The notes: generated by a model not told the origin, from the letters alone. Positions 2,088 through 40,121 are shown, numbered from the stretch's first letter. The stretch: DNA of 64,000 nucleotides from an uncultured Alphaproteobacteria bacterium (GCA_963755435.1 CAVWJX010000016.1:1048-65047), one strand, 5' to 3'. Numbers and translations: made by a program.

Positions 2088-2352
2088 GGCCATAGACGCG
2101 CCCGAAACTTAACGGACTGCCCCATTCCGACCATTGCTTGACGCGACCCTAAAGGTCTCGGGAGGGTGGATTCCGGTCCTTCGCCGACAGGCACGCCAGC
2201 AGTGAAGTAGCGCCGAAACCGGCCGTGCGCTCGGCCGCGCCAACAACGATGCCAGGGCAAGGTAGTGGGTCAGACCCACTACGGGGCAAGGCAGGGATTA
2301 ACTCAACGACGATGCCGATTTATCGTAAATTCGGAAATCTAAGGTGATCGTG

Positions 2353-2406
2353 ATGGGTCGGCTATCCAAGTTCAACATTCCGCTGAGAGGCTCCTGGCAC
2401 TATTGA
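2353..2406 (+). CDS. 17-aa micro-ORF (MGRLSKFNIPLRGSWHY), candidate leader or precursor peptide
   Basis: AGGTGA Shine-Dalgarno-like sequence at 2342-2347, 5 nt before the ATG. Its TGA (2404-2406) directly abuts the ATG of the next gene (2407). Too short for the supplied ORF track. Confidence 0.3.
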   Translation: MGRLSKFNIPLRGSWHY

Positions 2407-3270
2407 ATGCCGGGGGAGCCAGATCCCCTCGTTGAGGGGCCGGATTTCATCGAGAAGGTCGCGAGAGCCGACGAGATCATCGCCAGGCTGCGGGATGGCG
2501 ATTGGGATTTTGAAAAGGCGCGGGAAGTCTTCGCGCGTGACGCCCGGGCGGATGTTCTCGGCAAAGAAATCTTAAACTTCTACGACGGCCGACACATCAG
2601 CCGCTACGGTAAGCTGATTCTCGGTGGGGTTGGTCGAGCCTTCAACCTGATCGGGCATTTCCCGAGCACCGCGACGTTCCGGGTGAACGCGCCCGGCGTC
2701 GCAGGCATGGTAAGCGAGGTCAAAGCTGCCCTCGGATCGGATGGCCTCACTGAGGTGCCACGCTATAAGGAACTCGGACGGCCGCAAAAGATCGAATTTT
2801 TCAACTACAGCATCTTCTACACGCTTGAGGAGTTGATCCGATTCTTTATCTTGAACAATTCTGGATGCTTTCCAAGCACGCTTGAGCACCTCAAGCGCCT
2901 GTTCGCAGCCGGAAATATCGTCCAAGGCAGCCAGTACGCGCCCGCCATACCCTCCTTCGATCTCAGACGGCCGGCCGTGATGGAAGTCGAGTGCCTCGAG
3001 ATGTCGTTCTCAAGCCGCACGATGGAGTGGATGGAGCGCCCGCTTTACGGAGGGCTGGATCAGGTTACGGTGCACAAGGAGTATCTACTTACCCCCGAGC
3101 GGACAGAATTGGCGCATCCTTTCCTCGAGCTGGAGCGCACTGGCCGGGTCAGTTTGAACGGTCGGACTTGGTTTGTGCGCGAGTTCGGCGGCCTCGTTCA
3201 CAAGGAGGGGATCCGCGATTCCAGTGTGCCGGAAGAGGGGGCCGGCGCGCCGCAGGAACGGAAAGATTGA
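2407..3270 (+). CDS. Hypothetical protein (287 aa), no family recognised
   Basis: Long ORF in a visibly lower-GC stretch. Its stop overlaps the start of the next gene (TGATG at 3268-3272). Confidence 0.6.
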   Translation: MPGEPDPLVEGPDFIEKVARADEIIARLRDGDWDFEKAREVFARDARADVLGKEILNFYDGRHISRYGKLILGGVGRAFNLIGHFPSTATFRVNAPGVAGMVSEVKAALGSDGLTEVPRYKELGRPQKIEFFNYSIFYTLEELIRFFILNNSGCFPSTLEHLKRLFAAGNIVQGSQYAPAIPSFDLRRPAVMEVECLEMSFSSRTMEWMERPLYGGLDQVTVHKEYLLTPERTELAHPFLELERTGRVSLNGRTWFVREFGGLVHKEGIRDSSVPEEGAGAPQERKD

Positions 3271-4829
3271 TGTGGGACGGCAGCATCGGGCCGTCTGGGC
3301 GTTGTGCGCCGATTGACCTTCATGTGCGGGGACGCATCCCGGATGCGGTCGCGGGAGCGCTCCTCGTGCCGTGCAGCCGGCGCAACAAACGACGCGACGT
3401 CTATTCTCGCTGGCATGACTCACAGGCTGACCTGATCCGACTTACGCTTGAACCTGGCGTGCCTGGCCAGGTGAGAGCCGAAATTGTGGAGATAGATCCG
3501 CTCGCCAAGGACGTGAGCGGCGCGCAGCCGAACTGGTTGGACCTGTGCGCGGATGGGACGGATCCGGCCTTCGGCTACGTTACGCAGCCGAACCATGGAG
3601 TTAATGCAACAAACGGTCGGATCTGGATCACTAATCTCATGTTCGGCGCGCCTCTGGAGCTAGACGCCGATACGCTGAGTCCGACCCGTGTCCTGCAGCC
3701 AGTGCAGGTCAGCAAAGATATGCCTCGTGTGACCAGCACTGCACATTTCGCATTCAGCCTCGATAGTCGCTACGCCTATTTCCACCAATCGGCGCTCGCC
3801 CGCGAGGGAGGCGGTGATCCGGTTCGGTCCGGTCCTGTCCATCTGGTTCGCATCGACCTCCGCACGGGCAACCACCGCACCTGGGTAGTGAAGCCGCCTG
3901 CCGGCACGGATATGTCGTCGGTCAACTTCCATTCAGCCTTCTATTTCGAAGAGGAGGGCAGAAGATATATCGGCCTGTTGCAAACCGCAGCCCGGTTCGA
4001 GACGGTCGGTCCCGGTGGACTAGTTCCTCCGAAGACCAAGGCCCGCATGCAGTATTCTGAAATATGGATTATCGAGATTGACGAGCAGCGTGACGAGTTG
4101 TCCGCGCAACTCATTCCCGGCATTCGCGAGATCGCGGGCTACGCCCTGTCTCATCTTTGCATCGACAATAAAGATAGAGATGGTTTTGTCCTGTTCGCCA
4201 ACTTCAAAAACTCAGATGTCGGGGATGAGACCCGAGGAGAAAACATCTATGGCGCCGCTCCCGATGCCGTAATCGAGCACTATTCAGGCATGGTCGTGGA
4301 AGCGTTTGACTGCGGCAAAGTCATCCGAGTTGAGCGCCGCAACGGCATCTATCGCATAAAGATCTTGGCTCAAGACTATTTTCACGCTGCGAACTCGCGT
4401 GGCCACACATGGCTTCCGATCAATCTATGCCTTGATGCCAGTCGCAAGTACGTTTTCGGTAACTTCAATGGTCTACACCCTCGCCTGGTAGGCCGGCACA
4501 CCTATGACCTCTACAATCCAGAGTGCCTGAAGCCGAGCGAGGCGCGGAACATCCCCGAGGTCCATATGCGTTTGAGGGCCGATGACCTCACCCTCGATGT
4601 TCGCTCTGGACGTTCGCACCTCGCGTATACCCTCCCCAGCGCCATGGCTATAATCGGCGATGTGGAGACCGGCTACATGTGCAGTTTCTCCCCCGAGATG
4701 GGGTTGTTCATCACGCCGCTGAACGATCTCTCGAAGGTAGTCTGCCACGCCATCGGGCACGAACTCTGGACCTATGGCACCACCCATTTCCGGCCCGAGC
4801 CAGCACACGCCATCCATCTGCCGACCTGA
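3270..4829 (+). CDS. Carotenoid/stilbene cleavage oxygenase-like (RPE65/CCO-fold) protein, divergent
   Basis: The N-terminal APIDLHVRGRIPDAVAGALL resembles the family signature L.V.G.IP..L.G.L.RNGP. His-containing blocks (NHGVNA, TSTAHFAFSLDSRYAYF, VNFHSAFYFEEEG, GTTHFRPEPAHAIH) occur in the order expected for the four iron-binding histidines. The assignment is from memory of the family, not a search. Confidence 0.5.
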   Translation: MWDGSIGPSGRCAPIDLHVRGRIPDAVAGALLVPCSRRNKRRDVYSRWHDSQADLIRLTLEPGVPGQVRAEIVEIDPLAKDVSGAQPNWLDLCADGTDPAFGYVTQPNHGVNATNGRIWITNLMFGAPLELDADTLSPTRVLQPVQVSKDMPRVTSTAHFAFSLDSRYAYFHQSALAREGGGDPVRSGPVHLVRIDLRTGNHRTWVVKPPAGTDMSSVNFHSAFYFEEEGRRYIGLLQTAARFETVGPGGLVPPKTKARMQYSEIWIIEIDEQRDELSAQLIPGIREIAGYALSHLCIDNKDRDGFVLFANFKNSDVGDETRGENIYGAAPDAVIEHYSGMVVEAFDCGKVIRVERRNGIYRIKILAQDYFHAANSRGHTWLPINLCLDASRKYVFGNFNGLHPRLVGRHTYDLYNPECLKPSEARNIPEVHMRLRADDLTLDVRSGRSHLAYTLPSAMAIIGDVETGYMCSFSPEMGLFITPLNDLSKVVCHAIGHELWTYGTTHFRPEPAHAIHLPT

Positions 4830-4845
4830 GGCCGCCTCCGGCCTC

Positions 4846-5247
4846 GTGTTGAGGCTGGCAGACTGGCAAGCCTTATCCACACACGCGATCGAGAGCTATC
4901 CGAGCGAGTCGGTCGGGATCCTCTGCGGATACCTAGGCAGGCCCACCGAGGGATATTATCGGCTGGTCAACCGACAATCAGGTCGCGCCTTTGAGGCGTG
5001 CCCCAATTCGTTAACCTGTGTGCTTGCTGCGATCGAAGACGCCGGCAGGGTGCCGCTCGTGCTCTGTCACTCGCATCCCGATGGGGTTGCTCACCTGTCC
5101 CTGGAGGATGTGCATGGGCTCCGAGGTTGGCCAGCTCTAACCGGGGTAATCGCGGTCTCGCAAAGCCGCATTCTGGACTTTCGAGCGTTCTCAATCGAGT
5201 CCGAGCGGTTGATCCGGAATATTCCGATCACGATAAGCAAGGATTGA
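4846..5247 (+). CDS. JAB1/MPN/Mov34 (JAMM) metallopeptidase, stand-alone ~133 aa
   Basis: Intact JAMM motif: E in YPSESVGILCG, then CHSHPDGVAHLSLED (H-S-H-x7-S-x2-D). GTG 4846 or TTG 4849 start, 16 nt after the upstream stop. The track ORF from 4774 overlaps the upstream gene. Confidence 0.75.
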   Translation: MLRLADWQALSTHAIESYPSESVGILCGYLGRPTEGYYRLVNRQSGRAFEACPNSLTCVLAAIEDAGRVPLVLCHSHPDGVAHLSLEDVHGLRGWPALTGVIAVSQSRILDFRAFSIESERLIRNIPITISKD

Positions 5248-5299
5248 TGCAAAGTACTATTCTTGGACCTAAGTTTCGGCGTGCAGCAGGGCAGTCGAG

Positions 5300-5478
5300 A
5301 CACGCCTTGTAGCCGCGCGATGACATGCGCTTCCTTACTCGCTAGACCCGTCCCGCGGCGCATTGCAGCGGGGCACCCACGCGGCGGCGCCGCTCCTTGT
5401 AGAGCATCGGTAAAGGGCGCAGATGCCGTCCTCGCGCCCGGCCGATTTGAACCAGTCGAGAAACTGCGCCGTCGCGTC
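5300..5478 (-). pseudogene. C-terminal fragment of an LLM (NtaA/DszA-type) monooxygenase
   Basis: Minus strand reads VDATAQFLDWFKSAGREDGI.., then after a frame change LPMLYKERRR. This resembles the ..VAD.L..WF..GA.DGF.. tail seen in the intact LLM genes of this window. No start codon and no N-terminal part. Confidence 0.3.
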
Positions 5479-6320
5479 GACCTGGGCAGGATGGTTTCAA
5501 CCTCGGCTGGAAACTCGCCGCGGTTCTGCGCGGTCTCGCCGCGCCCGAACTCCTCCGAACCTACTCCGATGAGCGACGCGCAGTCGCTCAGGAGCTGATC
5601 GACTTCGATCGCGAGCTCGCAGCGATGTTTAGCGCCCCACCCAAGGACCCCACGGACCGCGACAGCGACGGCGTGGATCCCGCAGATTTGCAGCGCTATC
5701 TCACGCAGCACCTCCGCTTCACTGCGGGAACCGAGACCCGCTACCGCAGTTCGATCATCTGTGCCGTTCCAACCTGGCAGCGACTAGCCACGGGCCTGCC
5801 CATCGGAAAGCGATTTCATTCGGCTCCCGTCATTCGTCTCGCCGATGCGCGCTCTCTCCAAATCGGCCACATCGCGAGTGCCGACGGCCGCTGGCGGCTC
5901 TACGTCTTCACACCCGCCGAGGATCCGGGCGCACCCTCGTCGCGCCTTCATGCCCTCTGCACCTTCCTCACCGCGTCTGCCCGCTCACCGATCCGCCGCT
6001 TTACCCCACCGGGTGCGGACATCGACGCCGTTATCGACCTCCGTGCCATCTTCCAGCACGGCCACCGCGATCTCGACCTGGGGGCGATGCCCTCCTTGCT
6101 CCTGCCCAGCAAGGGACGCTACGGGCTGCACGACCACGAAAAGATGTTCTGCCCCGACCGCAGGCTGGGCCAGGACATCTTCGACTTGCGGGGCATCGAC
6201 CGGGATCAAGGCTGCATCGTCGTTGTCCGCCCCGACCAGTATGTCGCTCACATACTCCCGCTGGACGCCCACGAGGCACTCGCCTTCTTCTTCGACGCCT
6301 TCATGCTCCCGGCGGCGTAG
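5478..6320 (+). pseudogene. FAD-dependent aromatic (phenol 2-monooxygenase-like) hydroxylase, C-terminal fragment only
   Basis: The frame reads ..GQDGFNLGWKLAAVLRGLAAPELLRTYSDERRAVAQELIDFDRELAAMF.. and continues into a thioredoxin-like C-terminal domain. The FAD-binding N-terminal half is absent. Confidence 0.7.
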
Positions 6321-7071: not shown

Positions 7072-7162
7072 TGGCGGAGGGGATGAGATTCGAACTCACG
7101 ATAGGGGTTTAACCCTATAACGGTTTAGCAAACCGCCGCCTTCAGCCACTCGGCCACCCCTC
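7072..7162 (-). tRNA. tRNA-Ser (anticodon GCU)
   Basis: Minus strand reads GGAGGGGTGGCCGAGTGGCTGAAGGCGGCGGTTTGCTAAACCGTTATAGGGTTAAACCCCTATCGTGAGTTCGAATCTCATCCCCTCCGCCA. It has a 7-bp acceptor stem, anticodon loop TTGCTAA, a long variable arm, a GTTCGAATC T-loop and an encoded CCA. Confidence 0.9.
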
Positions 7163-7287
7163 CACCGATGAGTGGGATCGTCACGGCGTATGCCCGAGAA
7201 GCCTAGCCGGCGGCCGGCGCCGAGTCAATTCCGCCCAAGCCGATCAGAGGGGCGCCGGCTGGATCGAACCCAGCTCGCCGGCCGCGC

Positions 7288-17284: not shown

Positions 17285-18523
17285 ATGAGCGAGCGAACCG
17301 CAGCGGCAATGGCGACTCCGGGCGGCGCCAAATTCGTAGATGCGCCGGCGATCGTCGAGGAACCCGTCGCGGCGATTGCGGCGCCGATCAAAACGCCAGC
17401 CTGGCGGACTCGCTGGGTCGGCGCTGCCGCCGCCGAGGCGGTACTCGTGCCGTTCGGCGCGCTGGTCGTGTCGCTGCTGCTGTTCGGCGCCTTTGTCGCC
17501 TGCGCCGGGGTCGATCCGCTCTCGGTTTACGGCTACATGGCTTGGGGCTCGATCGGATCGTGGTTCTCGATCCAAAACACGCTGACGCGCGCGGCACCGC
17601 TGCTCCTGACCGGGCTGTGCACGGCGCTACCGGCGCAGGTCGGGCTGATGATCATCGGCGGCGAGGGCGCCTTTGTGATCGGCGCATTGTTCGCGGCAAT
17701 GGCCGGGGTCGCCTTGCACGATGCCCCCGCGTCGATCGCGCTCGCGGCGATGGCGGCGGCCGGCATCGTCGCCGGCGGGCTGTGGATCGCATTGGCGGGC
17801 GCGTTGCGCCACTGGCGCGGCGTCAACGAAACGATCTCCAGCCTGCTGTTGAACTACATCGCCATCGCCATCCTCAACCAGCTCGTCGAGGGGCCGTTTC
17901 GCGACCCGAAGAGCCTCAACAAGCCATCCTCGCCGTCGATCGGCTACGACCACATGATCGGCACGATGCCGGGGACCGAAATCCATTGGGGCCTGGCGAT
18001 CGGCATCGCCGTCTGCGTCCTTGCCTATGTGCTGGTGCGCCACACGACGATCGGCTTTGCGGCGCGGGTCGCCGGCGGCAATTTACGGGCGGCGCGAATG
18101 GTCGGCCTGCCGATCGGCAGGCTGGTGATACTGACCTGCTTTCTCGGCGGTGCCGCGGCGGGCCTCGCCGGCATGATCGAGGTCGCCGCCGTGCAGGAGC
18201 GCGCCAGCGCGGATCTGGTGACCGGCTATGGCTACGCGGGCATTCTGGTCGCGTTTCTCGCCCGGCAAAATCCGCTGGCGCTGATTCCGGTCGCGGTATT
18301 GCTCGGCGGGATCGGGGCCAGCGGCGGGCTGCTGCAGCGCCATCTCGGCCTGCCGGATGCGGCGACGGTCGTGCTGCAGGGGATCATCTTCGTCGCGATC
18401 CTGGCGAGCGACGCGGTGTACGGCCGTCTCCCTTGGTTCAAGGGCGCGGAGGCCCAGGGCGCAGAGGCCAAAGGCGCAGAGGCCAAAGGCGCAGAGGCCA
18501 AAGGCGCAGAGGCCCGTGCATGA
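17285..18523 (+). CDS. ABC transporter permease (BMP-type) with repetitive (GAEAK)n C-terminal tail
   Basis: Polytopic hydrophobic ORF following the substrate-binding protein. The tail is GAEAQGAEAKGAEAKGAEAKGAEARA. Confidence 0.8.
   Translation: MSERTAAAMATPGGAKFVDAPAIVEEPVAAIAAPIKTPAWRTRWVGAAAAEAVLVPFGALVVSLLLFGAFVACAGVDPLSVYGYMAWGSIGSWFSIQNTLTRAAPLLLTGLCTALPAQVGLMIIGGEGAFVIGALFAAMAGVALHDAPASIALAAMAAAGIVAGGLWIALAGALRHWRGVNETISSLLLNYIAIAILNQLVEGPFRDPKSLNKPSSPSIGYDHMIGTMPGTEIHWGLAIGIAVCVLAYVLVRHTTIGFAARVAGGNLRAARMVGLPIGRLVILTCFLGGAAAGLAGMIEVAAVQERASADLVTGYGYAGILVAFLARQNPLALIPVAVLLGGIGASGGLLQRHLGLPDAATVVLQGIIFVAILASDAVYGRLPWFKGAEAQGAEAKGAEAKGAEAKGAEARA
18443..18517 (+). repeat. Coding tandem repeat, 15 bp x5 (GGCGCAGAGGCCAAA)
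   Basis: Five consecutive units, three of them identical, encode GAEA(Q/K/R) at the 3' end of the permease gene. Confidence 0.9.
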
Positions 18524-38666: not shown

Positions 38667-38996
38667 TCATTCGAGGCGGGCGGTGAGAATGGCGTCGTCG
38701 CCGTTGTCGAAGGACAGCTCGATTTCGATAGAGCCATCGTCCTGAAGTTCGGCCGATCCGTCCCCGGAGACCTCATCGCCTTCGTCGAAGCCGCTCCAGC
38801 GGAAGAAGACGATGGTCTGGGAGTATTCGAGCTCGCCACCGGCAGTGACGCAGCCGAAAGCAAACTCGGCCCACCCGTCGCGGCCGATCTCGAGACAAGC
38901 CGGCTCGACCATATCGAGATATTTGGGGTCCCACAGATCGGCTTCGACGATCCGCCAACGACCGAGCAATTCGCAGCTTGCCACCGGGTCGCTCAT
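38667..38996 (-). CDS. IS-borne second ORF (orfB), paralog of 117-464
   Basis: Reads MSDPVASCELLGRWRIVEADLWDPKYLDMVEPACLEIGRDGWAEFAFG..FFRWSGFDEGDEVSGDGSAELQDDGSIEIELSFDNGDDAILTA. The ATG shares one base with the transposase stop (TGATG). Confidence 0.65.
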   Translation of the reverse strand: MSDPVASCELLGRWRIVEADLWDPKYLDMVEPACLEIGRDGWAEFAFGCVTAGGELEYSQTIVFFRWSGFDEGDEVSGDGSAELQDDGSIEIELSFDNGDDAILTARLE

Positions 38997-40121
38997 CACG
39001 CCGCCGCCAGCAGCGCGGGCGCCCGCACCAGGTTGTAGGCGGCCACCGCGAAGGTGAAGGCCCAGGCGACCTTGGCCCGGCCCCGCAGCTTGGTCTGGCG
39101 CAGGCCCGCCACCATCTTGATCCAGCCGAACGCCTCCTCGATCCGCTTGCGGATGTGCTGGCTCTTGGCATAGCCGGGGTGGCGTGTCGTGCGCTTGTCG
39201 ATCGCCGAGCGCCGGCCGCTCAAATTCTGCGCCACGTGCGGCCGCACGTTCAGGGTGCGCAATTCCTCGACCAAAATCGGCCGCGTCGTAGCTCTTGTCG
39301 GCGCCGAGCGTGACCGCCACCGGCCGCTCGGCGACAGGCTCGATCATGTCGAGCGCCGCCAGCCGCTCGGCGTGACCCGACACCAGGGTGAGCCGGGCAT
39401 CCACCAGGAGGCCCGAGCGGTTTTCCATCAGCCCGTGACCGATGTAGCACAACCGCGCCTCCATGCCCGGCCCTTTGCGGTAGAGCCGCGCGTCGGGATC
39501 GGTGGTGCTGCGGTGCGTCGCGTTCGAGCGCTTCTGGCCGCGAAAATCAGAGGGCGCATTGCGTCCGCCCCCGCCTTCGCTCTCCGGCGGCTCTTTCGGC
39601 TTGAAGCTCTTCATCGAGGCCCACGCCTGGATCAAGGTGCCATCGACCGAGAAGTGGTCACTCGACAACAACCGCTTGACCCGCGGCTGCGACAGCACGG
39701 CGGTGAGGAACTTGGCGGCGATCTCACCCTCCAACAGCCGGTCGCGGTTCTTCGAGAAACTCGAATGATCCCACACCGGGTCGTCGATGCCGAGGCCGAC
39801 GAACCAGCGAAACAACAGGTCGAACTCGATCCGCTCCATCAACTGCCGCTCCGAGCGCACCGAGTAGAAGGCTTGCAGCAGCATTGCCCGCAGCAATTTC
39901 TCCGGTGGCACCGACGGCCGCCCGATGCCGGAATAGAGCGCCGTGAAGTCGCCGGAGAGCGCCGCCAGGGCGGCGTTCGCGATCTCGCAAATCGGCCGCA
40001 GCGGATGATCCGCCCGAACCCGATCCTCCAGATCTATGTAGCTGAAAAGGCTGCCGCAAATATCATCATCGCCGCGCATCGCCACCCCCCGTCCCCTCTT
40101 CAGGGAATCACGACGCGCCAA
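38996..40121 (-). pseudogene. IS5/IS1182-family DDE transposase with one apparent 1-nt insertion
   Basis: The N-terminus LFSYIDLEDRVRADHPLRPI..LLRAMLLQAFYSVRSERQLMERIEFDLLFRWFVGL has an InsH-type N-domain. The frame breaks at ..GADKSYDAADF|VEELRTLNVRPHV.. (extra base at 39271-39272). The total length of 1126 nt equals 375 codons plus 1. Confidence 0.8.

Follow-up and report, generated by a model that had tools for sequence, protein, structure and literature searches.

We report that a 64,000-nucleotide (nt) stretch of DNA from an uncultured Alphaproteobacteria bacterium (GCA_963755435.1 CAVWJX010000016.1:1048-65047; hereafter the window) probably encodes a selenoprotein that belongs to no catalogued family. 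The gene, at positions 2353-3270, would specify a 305-residue protein with selenocysteine (Sec) at residue 18, within a W-x-Y-U-M motif, and is the first of three in a compact cassette that also encodes a putative member of the carotenoid cleavage oxygenase (CCO) superfamily and a stand-alone JAMM peptidase. A first-pass annotation of this DNA had divided the same gene into a 17-amino-acid (aa) micro-open reading frame (micro-ORF) and a separate 287-aa protein, and had proposed a horizontally acquired pathway for a small molecule or for a ribosomally synthesized and post-translationally modified peptide (RiPP). We read the two ORFs as most likely one gene because the intervening TGA shows the conservation of a recoding site, as does an RNA hairpin that accompanies it, and a selenoprotein operon describes the module better than a RiPP cluster does. 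The selenoprotein reading would by itself account for an invariant in-frame TGA, an allele with Cys in its place, a covarying hairpin with a G-U loop, conserved sequence on both sides of the codon, the absence of that hairpin from the Cys form and, in one host, a neighbourhood that holds a tRNA-Sec and a second selenoprotein gene. The recoding mechanism itself is already known; the novelty, in our judgement a likely one, lies in the selenoprotein family. The cassette comprises the following features.

2292-2352, + strand: 5' end of the cassette, with a promoter-like block (GGGATTrAC...GATTTATCGT) and the Shine-Dalgarno sequence AGGTGA
2353-3270, + strand: proposed selenoprotein gene, 17 codons, UGA (Sec18) and 287 codons, 305 residues
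2353-2403, + strand: N-terminal segment of that gene, MGRLSKFNIPLRGSWHY (the 'micro-ORF'), with cross-phylum conservation and a low nonsynonymous substitution rate (dN)
2404-2406, + strand: proposed Sec codon, an in-frame UGA, TGA in 54/54 loci with a Cys codon in loci L001 and L002
2425-2439, + strand: hairpin CCCCUC-GUU-GAGGGG, resembling a selenocysteine insertion sequence (SECIS), with covariation and a fit to the bacterial SECIS (bSECIS) model
3270-4829, + strand: predicted seven-bladed propeller of the CCO/RPE65 superfamily, 519 aa, with a putative four-His iron site, from a fold model and invariant His residues
4846-5247, + strand: stand-alone JAMM/MPN+ zinc metallopeptidase, 133 aa, with PF14464 and an intact motif
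5248-5307, + strand: conserved 3' tail of the cassette, up to the end of homology with relatives

The layout of four tightly packed ORFs on one strand is as first described. The 17-aa micro-ORF MGRLSKFNIPLRGSWHY spans 2353-2406 (+) with its stop codon, its ATG is spaced 5 nt from the Shine-Dalgarno sequence AGGTGA at 2342-2347, and its TGA (2404-2406) is directly followed by the ATG (2407) that opens the 287-aa ORF (2407-3270, +). That ORF overlaps the next (3270-4829) through TGATG at 3268-3272, and the 133-aa JAMM ORF (4846-5247, +), with a GTG start, follows after 16 nt. The third ORF is real, and only its earlier length of 520 aa, reached because the stop codon had been counted, gives way to 519 aa.

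The case for recoding comes from homologous loci, of which 16 from genomes and 50 from metagenomes were fetched through the 287-aa protein and more through the 519-aa protein. A short ORF of 17 to ~60 codons directly precedes the 287-aa homologue in every locus, and the loci found through the 519-aa protein likewise show the short ORF-TGA-ATG arrangement. The two ORFs share one frame, with neither spacer nor overlap, in 54/54 distinct loci, and the codon between them is TGA in 54/54 distinct junctions, never TAA or TAG. As controls, the stop codon of the 287-aa gene itself in the same loci is TGA in 32, TAG in 12 and TAA in 5 (65% TGA), and its junction with the next gene varies between an overlap of 4 nt and spacers that are tens of nucleotides long. 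The invariance of the TGA is not due to recent common ancestry, because the junction sequences (a clustering set of 56, composed of 55 distinct junctions with the Cys form included, plus L071 and L072) form 29 groups when clustered by single linkage with a 70% identity threshold; at 60% there are 18.

Conservation continues on both sides of this codon, where the consensus reads ...P-I/L-x-G-G/S-W-x-Y-U-M.... Across phyla the short segments (21-60 aa) end in ...F-x-x-W-L-x-x-x-Y-x-P-I-A-G-G-W-Q-Y, the tail in the clade of the window is F-N-I-P-L-R-G-S-W-H-Y, and the segment in the window is a shortened version. Compared with close relatives the 17-codon segment has a dN of 0-0.12 at a synonymous rate (dS) of ~1. 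The micro-ORF is thus conserved across phyla and under purifying selection, in line with what conservation the first-pass annotation had called for. The Tyr codon before the UGA (2401-2403 in the window) is TAT in 45/54 loci, where TAC would be expected in high-GC hosts; this preference suggests a constraint on the nucleotide context, namely a U before the UGA.

In one lineage, known from L001 (a metagenome-assembled genome at NCBI) and L002 (from Logan, with the contig recorded in 4 samples), TGC for Cys replaces the TGA. The gene is there called as a single 295-aa protein, P0126, MGRLSRFNVPLKGSWHYCMPG..., with ratios of dN to dS of 0.08 in the 287-aa part and 0.09 in the CCO-like gene, which indicate purifying selection. 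The hairpin that follows the UGA elsewhere is lost at this Cys-form locus.

That hairpin lies at 2425-2439 in the window, where 6 bp enclose the loop GUU 24 nt after the UGA (-9.0 kcal/mol), with a possible outer CCGG/CCGG helix formed by 2410-2413 and 2440-2443. Across loci it starts 13-15 nt after the UGA and comprises 5-9 bp in 36 distinct stems, with loops of GGUC (26 sequences), AGUU (7), GUU (5), GUG (4) or close variants; the first loop nucleotide lies 20 nt past the UGA in 32/55 sequences and mostly at 19-24 nt. The two loop columns hold G in 51/54 and U in 53/54. Stem and loop G-U are retained despite changes in the encoded peptide (PSVEG, PFVEG, FPVRG, PQFGD, SSFES, PFSLEG): the F-P-V-R-G locus forms CCCG-GUC-CGGG, the P-Q-F-G-D locus CCCCA-GUU-UGGGG and the S-S-F-E-S locus GCUCUCAA-GUU-UUGAGAGC, and in several of these loci the loop G-U comes from codons other than those for Val.

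An RNAalifold run on a MAFFT alignment gave 3 pairs only, because loop sizes shift the register, and covariation was instead derived from an explicit structure with a hairpin search in each sequence. In the resulting 54-sequence alignment 83.6% of cells are paired, a register-slide control peaks at 0, and 41 double-sided changes are observed against 17 +/- 3 in shuffles, none of 500 shuffles reaching the observed count. Real sequences also form more stable folds than do synonymous recodings of the same peptides, with a mean z of -0.68 (p 6e-6, a value not corrected for phylogeny). A covariance model built from the 54 sequences recovers held-out loci at 53-63 bits (E 1e-14 to 1e-17) and separates TGA forms (49-70 bits, held-out loci included) from the Cys form at 14.7 bits. 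It found no second site in the window and did not pick up the SECIS of the AhpD-like gene described below. The best other match, 18302-18343 (minus) at 13.2 bits and E 0.038, covers the hairpin part only, without a UGA; it lies within a permease gene, on the opposite strand, and is probably due to chance.

The window hairpin agrees with the published bSECIS model and its constraints (PMC13188914). The strict form of that model fits 36/54 loci; when 32,756 further in-frame positions of these loci were scored as background, 5.8% fitted. The remaining loci have the same hairpin in a weaker form. The E. coli SECIS likewise has a 17-nt upper stem-loop, placed 11 nt after the UGA, whose loop contains G23 and U24 (PMC8659212).

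The host best suited to a check of the Sec trait is Geodermatophilus sp. LHW52908 (locus L015), the only isolate genome that carries the cassette. ARAGORN found a single tRNA in 38 loci, and it is a tRNA-Sec at L015:12037-12131 (Rfam RF01852, 81.8 bits), with ~1.2 kb separating it from the JAMM gene end. In this interval, on the other strand and so likewise within 1.3 kb of the cassette, is an AhpD-like gene (L015:11150-11722, minus; TIGR01926, 112.6 bits against a cutoff of 81.8) with an in-frame TGA in C-F-Y-U-M-E-S-H and, 17 nt downstream of that TGA, a 7-bp hairpin with a GUU loop. The context TAT-TGA-ATG-G is common to this gene and to the cassette UGA, and judged by sequence its SECIS, which serves as our reference, looks like the cassette hairpin. 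The presence of the tRNA-Sec and of a catalogued selenoprotein gene of the AhpD-like type indicates that the Geodermatophilus host decodes UGA as Sec. The same locus also contains a match to the ALIL frameshift pseudoknot of Rfam (L015:4047-4175).

Several points weigh against the selenoprotein reading. The insertion of selenium at the UGA at 2404-2406 is, like the substrates and the JAMM cleavage site, something that we infer from sequence, and the functional model, in which the JAMM peptidase would probably cut after G-G with the oxygenase as partner, is drawn by analogy only. The codon after the TGA is ATG in 53/54 loci, which resembles a coupled start codon, and GGG in L062. Part of the stem pairing is dictated by the encoded P-S-V-E-G; 18/54 hairpins fall short of -7.5 kcal/mol as a simple hairpin; and the hairpin is short and, unlike the fdhF SECIS of E. 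coli, has no bulged U. In most selenoprotein families Cys homologues are numerous (PMC13188914), and a phmmer search of 1.84 billion representatives found no Cys forms beyond the one lineage. Selenoproteins are considered rare in aerobes (PMC13188914), and most hosts of the cassette are aerobic. Sec machinery could be checked in the Geodermatophilus host only, and neither the 64-kb window nor the flanks of the other loci yielded any; we regard such absence near a cassette as uninformative because these genes usually lie elsewhere in the genome. A tblastn search for SelD, with an E. coli query sequence, had no match in the 545 kb of DNA fetched. Finally, Rfam gave no match in 2250-2600 at a permissive E-value, a result that we list here and do not hold against a SECIS, because we assume that Rfam has no generic bacterial SECIS model. 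The atypical L062 locus (L062:2195-2251) reads W-H-F-[TGA]-G-D-D-H-D-V-A-S-V-D-G-P, with a GTG five codons downstream as a possible alternative start and a hairpin cut to 4 bp with a GGUC loop.

The same conservation could reflect a short ORF that is a stand-alone precursor or scaffold peptide ending at the UGA, with a G-G leader and a W-x-Y core. The CCO-like enzyme would then oxidize or cross-link Trp and Tyr, the JAMM peptidase would free the modified tripeptide after G-G, and the 287-aa protein would be a peptide-binding partner, with ribosomes that terminate at the UGA reinitiating on the abutting AUG. QbsD acts in this manner on QbsE, and Mec+ on CysO, each removing residues that follow the GG, and W-x-Y is preceded by G-G here; a JAMM peptidase without a ubiquitin-like partner needs a substrate. 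The peptide is kept across phyla with W and Y invariant and the residue between them variable (Q/H/M/E/A/L), as for a cross-linked motif, while hydrophobic residues at -4, -7, -12 and -15 may resemble those of double-glycine leaders. The ATG that follows the stop in 53/54 loci and the separate annotation of the short ORFs by gene callers would also fit. Such a precursor nonetheless leaves unexplained why TGA occurs in 54/54 loci when TAA and TAG would be equally usable (35% of the control genes have non-TGA stops), why the frame and spacing of the two ORFs are constant, and why a covarying G-U-loop hairpin lies at the distance of a SECIS. Moreover, in one lineage that is apparently functional a Cys joins peptide and protein into a single chain, and scans of Pfam and NCBIfam found neither a RiPP recognition element nor a known RiPP maturase family. 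We therefore consider this account unlikely, and the idea of the micro-ORF as a stand-alone RiPP precursor, raised by the first-pass annotation, gave way to the in-frame TGA, the TGC lineage, the covarying hairpin and the want of a maturase family.

Two further models are weaker than this RiPP-like one. If the short ORF encoded an arrest peptide or served as a regulatory leader, ribosomes that stall or terminate at the UGA, helped by the hairpin, would control translation of the 287-aa ORF by coupling, without any selenium. Stop and start do abut, the second ATG has a weak Shine-Dalgarno sequence, the hairpin 13-15 nt past the stop would lie roughly at the mRNA entry of a ribosome paused on the UGA, and the tail ...W-L...P-I-A-G-G-W-Q-Y is loosely like the SecM and TnaC arrest motifs, TnaC ending at a UGA. 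Regulatory leaders are, however, rarely this conserved over six phyla together with a mobile cassette, and a leader would account neither for the Cys-fusion allele under purifying selection, nor for a loop G-U that matches the SelB-binding consensus, nor for the tRNA-Sec and second selenoprotein in the L015 neighbourhood; we judge this model very unlikely. The invariant UGA and hairpin could be reconciled with the invariant AUG by a dual output, in which partial Sec decoding yields a free short peptide, a Met-initiated 287-aa protein and the Sec fusion, all of them functional. Bacterial Sec decoding is inefficient and selenium-dependent (general knowledge; PMC8659212). We hold this to be very unlikely: it is unparsimonious, L062 lacks the AUG and the Cys form cannot yield separate products.

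The proposed selenoprotein stands apart from known families. The first-pass annotation could not place the 287-aa protein, and it stayed unplaced in Pfam, NCBIfam and PADLOC and in fold searches of the PDB; full-length versions with U changed to C likewise had no match in Pfam or NCBIfam 20.0. The selenoprotein families of Haft & Tolstoy 2025 are reportedly represented by NCBIfam models, none of which matched. The structural model of the 287-aa protein is confident (predicted local distance difference test, pLDDT, 86.5). Foldseek offered M1-aminopeptidase N-domains and ion channels, matches too weak (E >=4e-3, template modelling (TM) score <=0.35) for an assignment. A phmmer search with the Cys form against the 1.84 billion representatives returned 23 matches, all starting after residue 19, and no distant relatives of the 287-aa protein. 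None of the 119 prokaryotic selenoprotein families in the May-2026 catalogue fits by motif or model, and the deep-Sep and BSepDB papers make no mention of a W-x-Y-U-M family.

Judged from its AlphaFold2 model (pLDDT 87, predicted TM score 0.90), the 519-aa protein is a highly divergent member of the CCO/RPE65 fold, with a putative four-His site, presumably for Fe(II) and O2. All of the top 30 Foldseek matches in the PDB are of the CCO type (apocarotenoid and carotenoid oxygenases, NinaB, RPE65, and plant and archaeal carotenoid cleavage dioxygenases, CCDs), at E 1.3e-13 to 1e-9 and TM 0.46-0.59. The earlier CCO/RPE65-like call therefore stands at the level of fold, and at the level of Pfam it does not, the window protein having no match in Pfam, NCBIfam or PADLOC. 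Six His residues are invariant in 46 sequences: H159, H221, H295 and H513, together with His109 and His379. The first-pass annotation had noticed four His blocks in the expected order, and the spacing of the first four residues, 62/74/218 with the last His 6 residues from the C-terminus, closely follows the 61/72/214/6 of RPE65, whose iron ligands we take to be His180/241/313/527 (the RPE65 sequence used for this comparison was verified against PDB 3fsn). Local motifs are also alike in the two proteins (TAH, FHS and the His 6 residues from the end). At the sequence level, 7/46 family members match Pfam RPE65 (PF03055), the best at E 0.0018, with scores that were not set against the gathering cutoff. 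A family profile matches the N-terminus of an archaeal CCD in the PDB weakly (E 0.024, the N-terminal 150 residues only), and hhalign aligned the family with a single RPE65 sequence over the N-terminal 54 columns only, at a probability of 5%. A homologue search from the archaeal CCD fragment returned partial proteins only (<=280 aa), and because these permitted no full profile-profile test the third and fourth His were judged by invariance and spacing. The public data hold at least 278 homologous clusters for the 519-aa protein and at least 28 for the 287-aa protein, all labelled 'hypothetical' apart from a few JGI 'RPE65' labels.

The JAMM ORF is the sole cassette protein that Pfam recognizes (Prok-JAB, PF14464; 38.5 bits, cutoff 25). 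Its motif, E...HSHPDGVAHLSLED, is intact in the window, as the first-pass annotation had observed, and E...HSHx7SxxD is kept in 31 loci. The nearest NCBIfam model is the archaeal desampylase, below cutoff, and PADLOC gave a JAB match at E 0.035 only. The peptidase had also been described as lacking its customary partners, and no ThiS, MoaD, beta-grasp, E1 or E2 partner was found in the window or in 35 related loci. In L009, L021, L024, L029 and L041 the JAMM homologues have 2-3 Cys in the spacer of the metal motif (HSHPxGCxCxS), where others have Gly-Gly; these Cys could form an extra metal or redox site.

The three genes travel together. In the 35 loci that measure 6 kb or more, no families are common apart from the 287-aa protein (34/35), the CCO-like protein (34/35) and the JAMM peptidase (33/35), which bears out the co-localization that the first-pass annotation had asked of their homologues; the other recurrent 'families' are antisense shadow ORFs. 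By their records the hosts include Xanthobacteraceae and other Alphaproteobacteria, Rubrivivax (Betaproteobacteria), Gemmatimonadota, Nitrospirae, Acidimicrobiia, Geodermatophilus and, among Acidobacteria, Pyrinomonadaceae, Bryobacterales and Acidoferrales, a spread of at least six phyla of soil bacteria. The cassette (2292-5307) is horizontally mobile, with a unit of transfer of ~3.0 kb. In its closest relatives (L003-L006) nucleotide homology to the window is 85-90% and extends only from 2292-2343 to 5229-5307, and the flanks beyond are unrelated; that homology ends on either side, at 2292 and at 5307, supports the earlier proposal of horizontal acquisition. Elsewhere the cassette is directly flanked by a DDE transposase and ParD/ParE (L003:4900-6935) or by IS30-type (HTH_38/rve) and IS110 transposases (L015:4750-7208). 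The termini show no convincing inverted or direct repeats, the best pair being 22 nt at 73% (2336-2357 with 5224-5245) and falling inside the Shine-Dalgarno/start region and the JAMM 3' end. A plasmid database searched with the CCO-like protein gave no match. The toxin-antitoxin, transposase and helix-turn-helix neighbours of some loci had suggested a defence island, a reading that was dropped; PADLOC made no defence-system assignment.

Base composition sets the cassette apart from its surroundings. The lower G+C, previously estimated by eye, was confirmed on computation: 58.7% in 2353-5247 (left flank 64.8%, right flank 67.5%), which makes this the lowest-G+C 3-kb window within the 64 kb, and G+C at third codon positions is 0.67-0.72 in the cassette genes and 0.80-0.86 in neighbouring genes. 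The block at 2292-2352, conserved in the nucleotide alignment of the relatives, may act as a promoter; a scan for consensus promoters and terminators gave nothing above shuffles and did not flag it. Upstream lies an amidohydrolase gene (Pfam). Downstream, the ORF at 5625-6320 consists of a phenol hydroxylase C-terminal dimerization domain alone (PF07976, E 9e-55), without the FAD-binding N-terminal part; it looks like a remnant truncated at the cassette end and may mark the insertion site. The tRNA gene reported next to the module is tRNA-Ser(GCU) at 7072-7163 (minus strand), 1.8 kb downstream. Cassettes do not generally lie next to a tRNA gene, since only L015 among the 38 other loci scanned had one nearby. 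The ORF at 117-461, the sole one examined for the relic of an integrative and conjugative element, has no Pfam match. Farther away, an ORF with a DUF772 transposase domain (38667-40121, minus) lies amid ordinary metabolic genes, for hydantoinase A/B, luciferase-like monooxygenases and ABC transporters.

Under the selenoprotein reading, translation would start at ATG 2353 from the Shine-Dalgarno sequence AGGTGA, and the hairpin at 2425-2439 would recruit SelB with Sec-tRNA(Sec) to decode the UGA at 2404-2406 as Sec, before translation continued through 287 codons to give the 305-residue protein. The invariant AUG after the UGA may permit re-initiation when Sec decoding fails. The gene would be the first in a self-contained three-gene operon (2292-5307) with the CCO-like and JAMM genes. 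Because only three genes travel together, the selenoprotein is likely a partner or substrate of the other two and not part of a longer pathway. The CCO-like protein would presumably bind Fe(II) and activate O2, and the Sec may be the redox-active or the metal- or substrate-contacting residue of a two-enzyme oxidative system, or may itself be matured by the oxygenase. JAMM enzymes cut after the Gly-Gly of ubiquitin-like proteins, with desampylase, Mec+ and QbsD as GG-specific examples; by analogy, the cassette peptidase would probably remove an N-terminal pro-segment, cutting after G-G (G-S here) and leaving W-x-Y-U-M at the new N-terminus. A role in peptide maturation, with a cut after G-G or G-S, is possible for it under the selenoprotein and the RiPP reading alike.

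A more speculative extension, which we find doubtful, makes W-x-Y-U-M itself the substrate: the CCO-like enzyme would cross-link or oxidize Trp or Tyr with the selenol, and the JAMM peptidase would cut after G-G. With the same doubt attached, the product would be a selenium-containing protein-derived redox cofactor at the new N-terminus of the 287-aa protein, or a released selenium mini-peptide. If true, this would be a Sec analogue of cysteine tryptophylquinone (CTQ) or Tyr-Cys, or a Sec-containing RiPP, arising from an enzyme pair never linked to peptide maturation. To our knowledge, selenium has never been reported in a protein-derived cross-link cofactor.

If correct, the selenoprotein reading would add a near-exclusively Sec-form family whose fold has no significant match in the PDB and which is widespread among aerobic soil bacteria from six or more phyla, obligatorily paired with an iron enzyme of the O2-dependent type and a JAMM protease. 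It would offer a first functional handle, in the form of a selenium-dependent partner, on a deep unannotated branch of CCO proteins with at least 278 clusters, and a candidate substrate for a class of orphan JAMM peptidases. It would also mean that gene callers systematically report such a gene as two pieces, a micro-ORF and a truncated protein, a point of relevance to pipelines that mine micro-ORFs and RiPPs.

Each part of the cassette has relatives among known systems. The peptidase resembles the HvJAMM1 desampylase, Mec+ (with CysO) and QbsD (with QbsE) in its size of ~130-150 aa, its intact E...HxHx7SxxD zinc site and the conserved Gly-Gly in the probable substrate. It differs in that no beta-grasp carrier (ThiS, MoaD, SAMP) or E1-like enzyme accompanies it in the 35 loci, and in the position of the candidate GG, which precedes W-x-Y-U by 3 residues within an N-terminal segment and is not, as in ubiquitin-like substrates, C-terminal. 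The predicted oxygenase shares with CCO/RPE65 proteins (ACO, NinaB, RPE65, NOV1, LsdA) the seven-bladed propeller, the W-x-D-x-x-A-x-L N-terminal signature and a set of four invariant His that are spaced almost identically, with the final one 6 residues from the C-terminus. Its sequence is ~10-13% identical to theirs, and unlike them it has the additional invariant His109 and His379 and is always encoded with the selenoprotein and the JAMM peptidase; we know of no other case of a CCO encoded with these two. Protein-derived cofactor systems offer a looser parallel. CTQ (in quinohemoprotein amine dehydrogenase, QHNDH, and LodA), the Met-Tyr-Trp of KatG and the Tyr-Cys of galactose oxidase are similar in bringing Trp, Tyr, a chalcogen and Met within five residues, and such systems also encode an oxygen-activating partner enzyme and a protease alongside; the QHNDH beta-propeller is among the weaker Foldseek matches of the 519-aa protein. 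The cassette enzymes differ from those of all three, and the likeness is one of analogy only.

Known bacterial selenoprotein genes offer a further parallel, for example those of the AhpD-like CxxU type (TIGR01926/NF041238) and SelD. These share with the cassette gene an in-frame UGA with conserved flanks, a variant with a Cys codon, an N-terminal Sec, a hairpin within the coding region with a G-U apical loop 16-37 nt downstream, and mis-annotation as two ORFs or as a truncated protein. The cassette protein has no relationship in sequence or fold to catalogued selenoprotein families, and its Sec lies in W-x-Y-U-M without a CxxU or UxxC redox motif or a partner Cys. Its family also differs from theirs in being almost without Cys homologues and in having mainly aerobic soil bacteria as hosts. 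The AhpD-like gene that lies beside the cassette in Geodermatophilus nevertheless has the same Y-U-M, written in the same TAT-TGA-ATG-G context, as the proposed selenoprotein gene itself.

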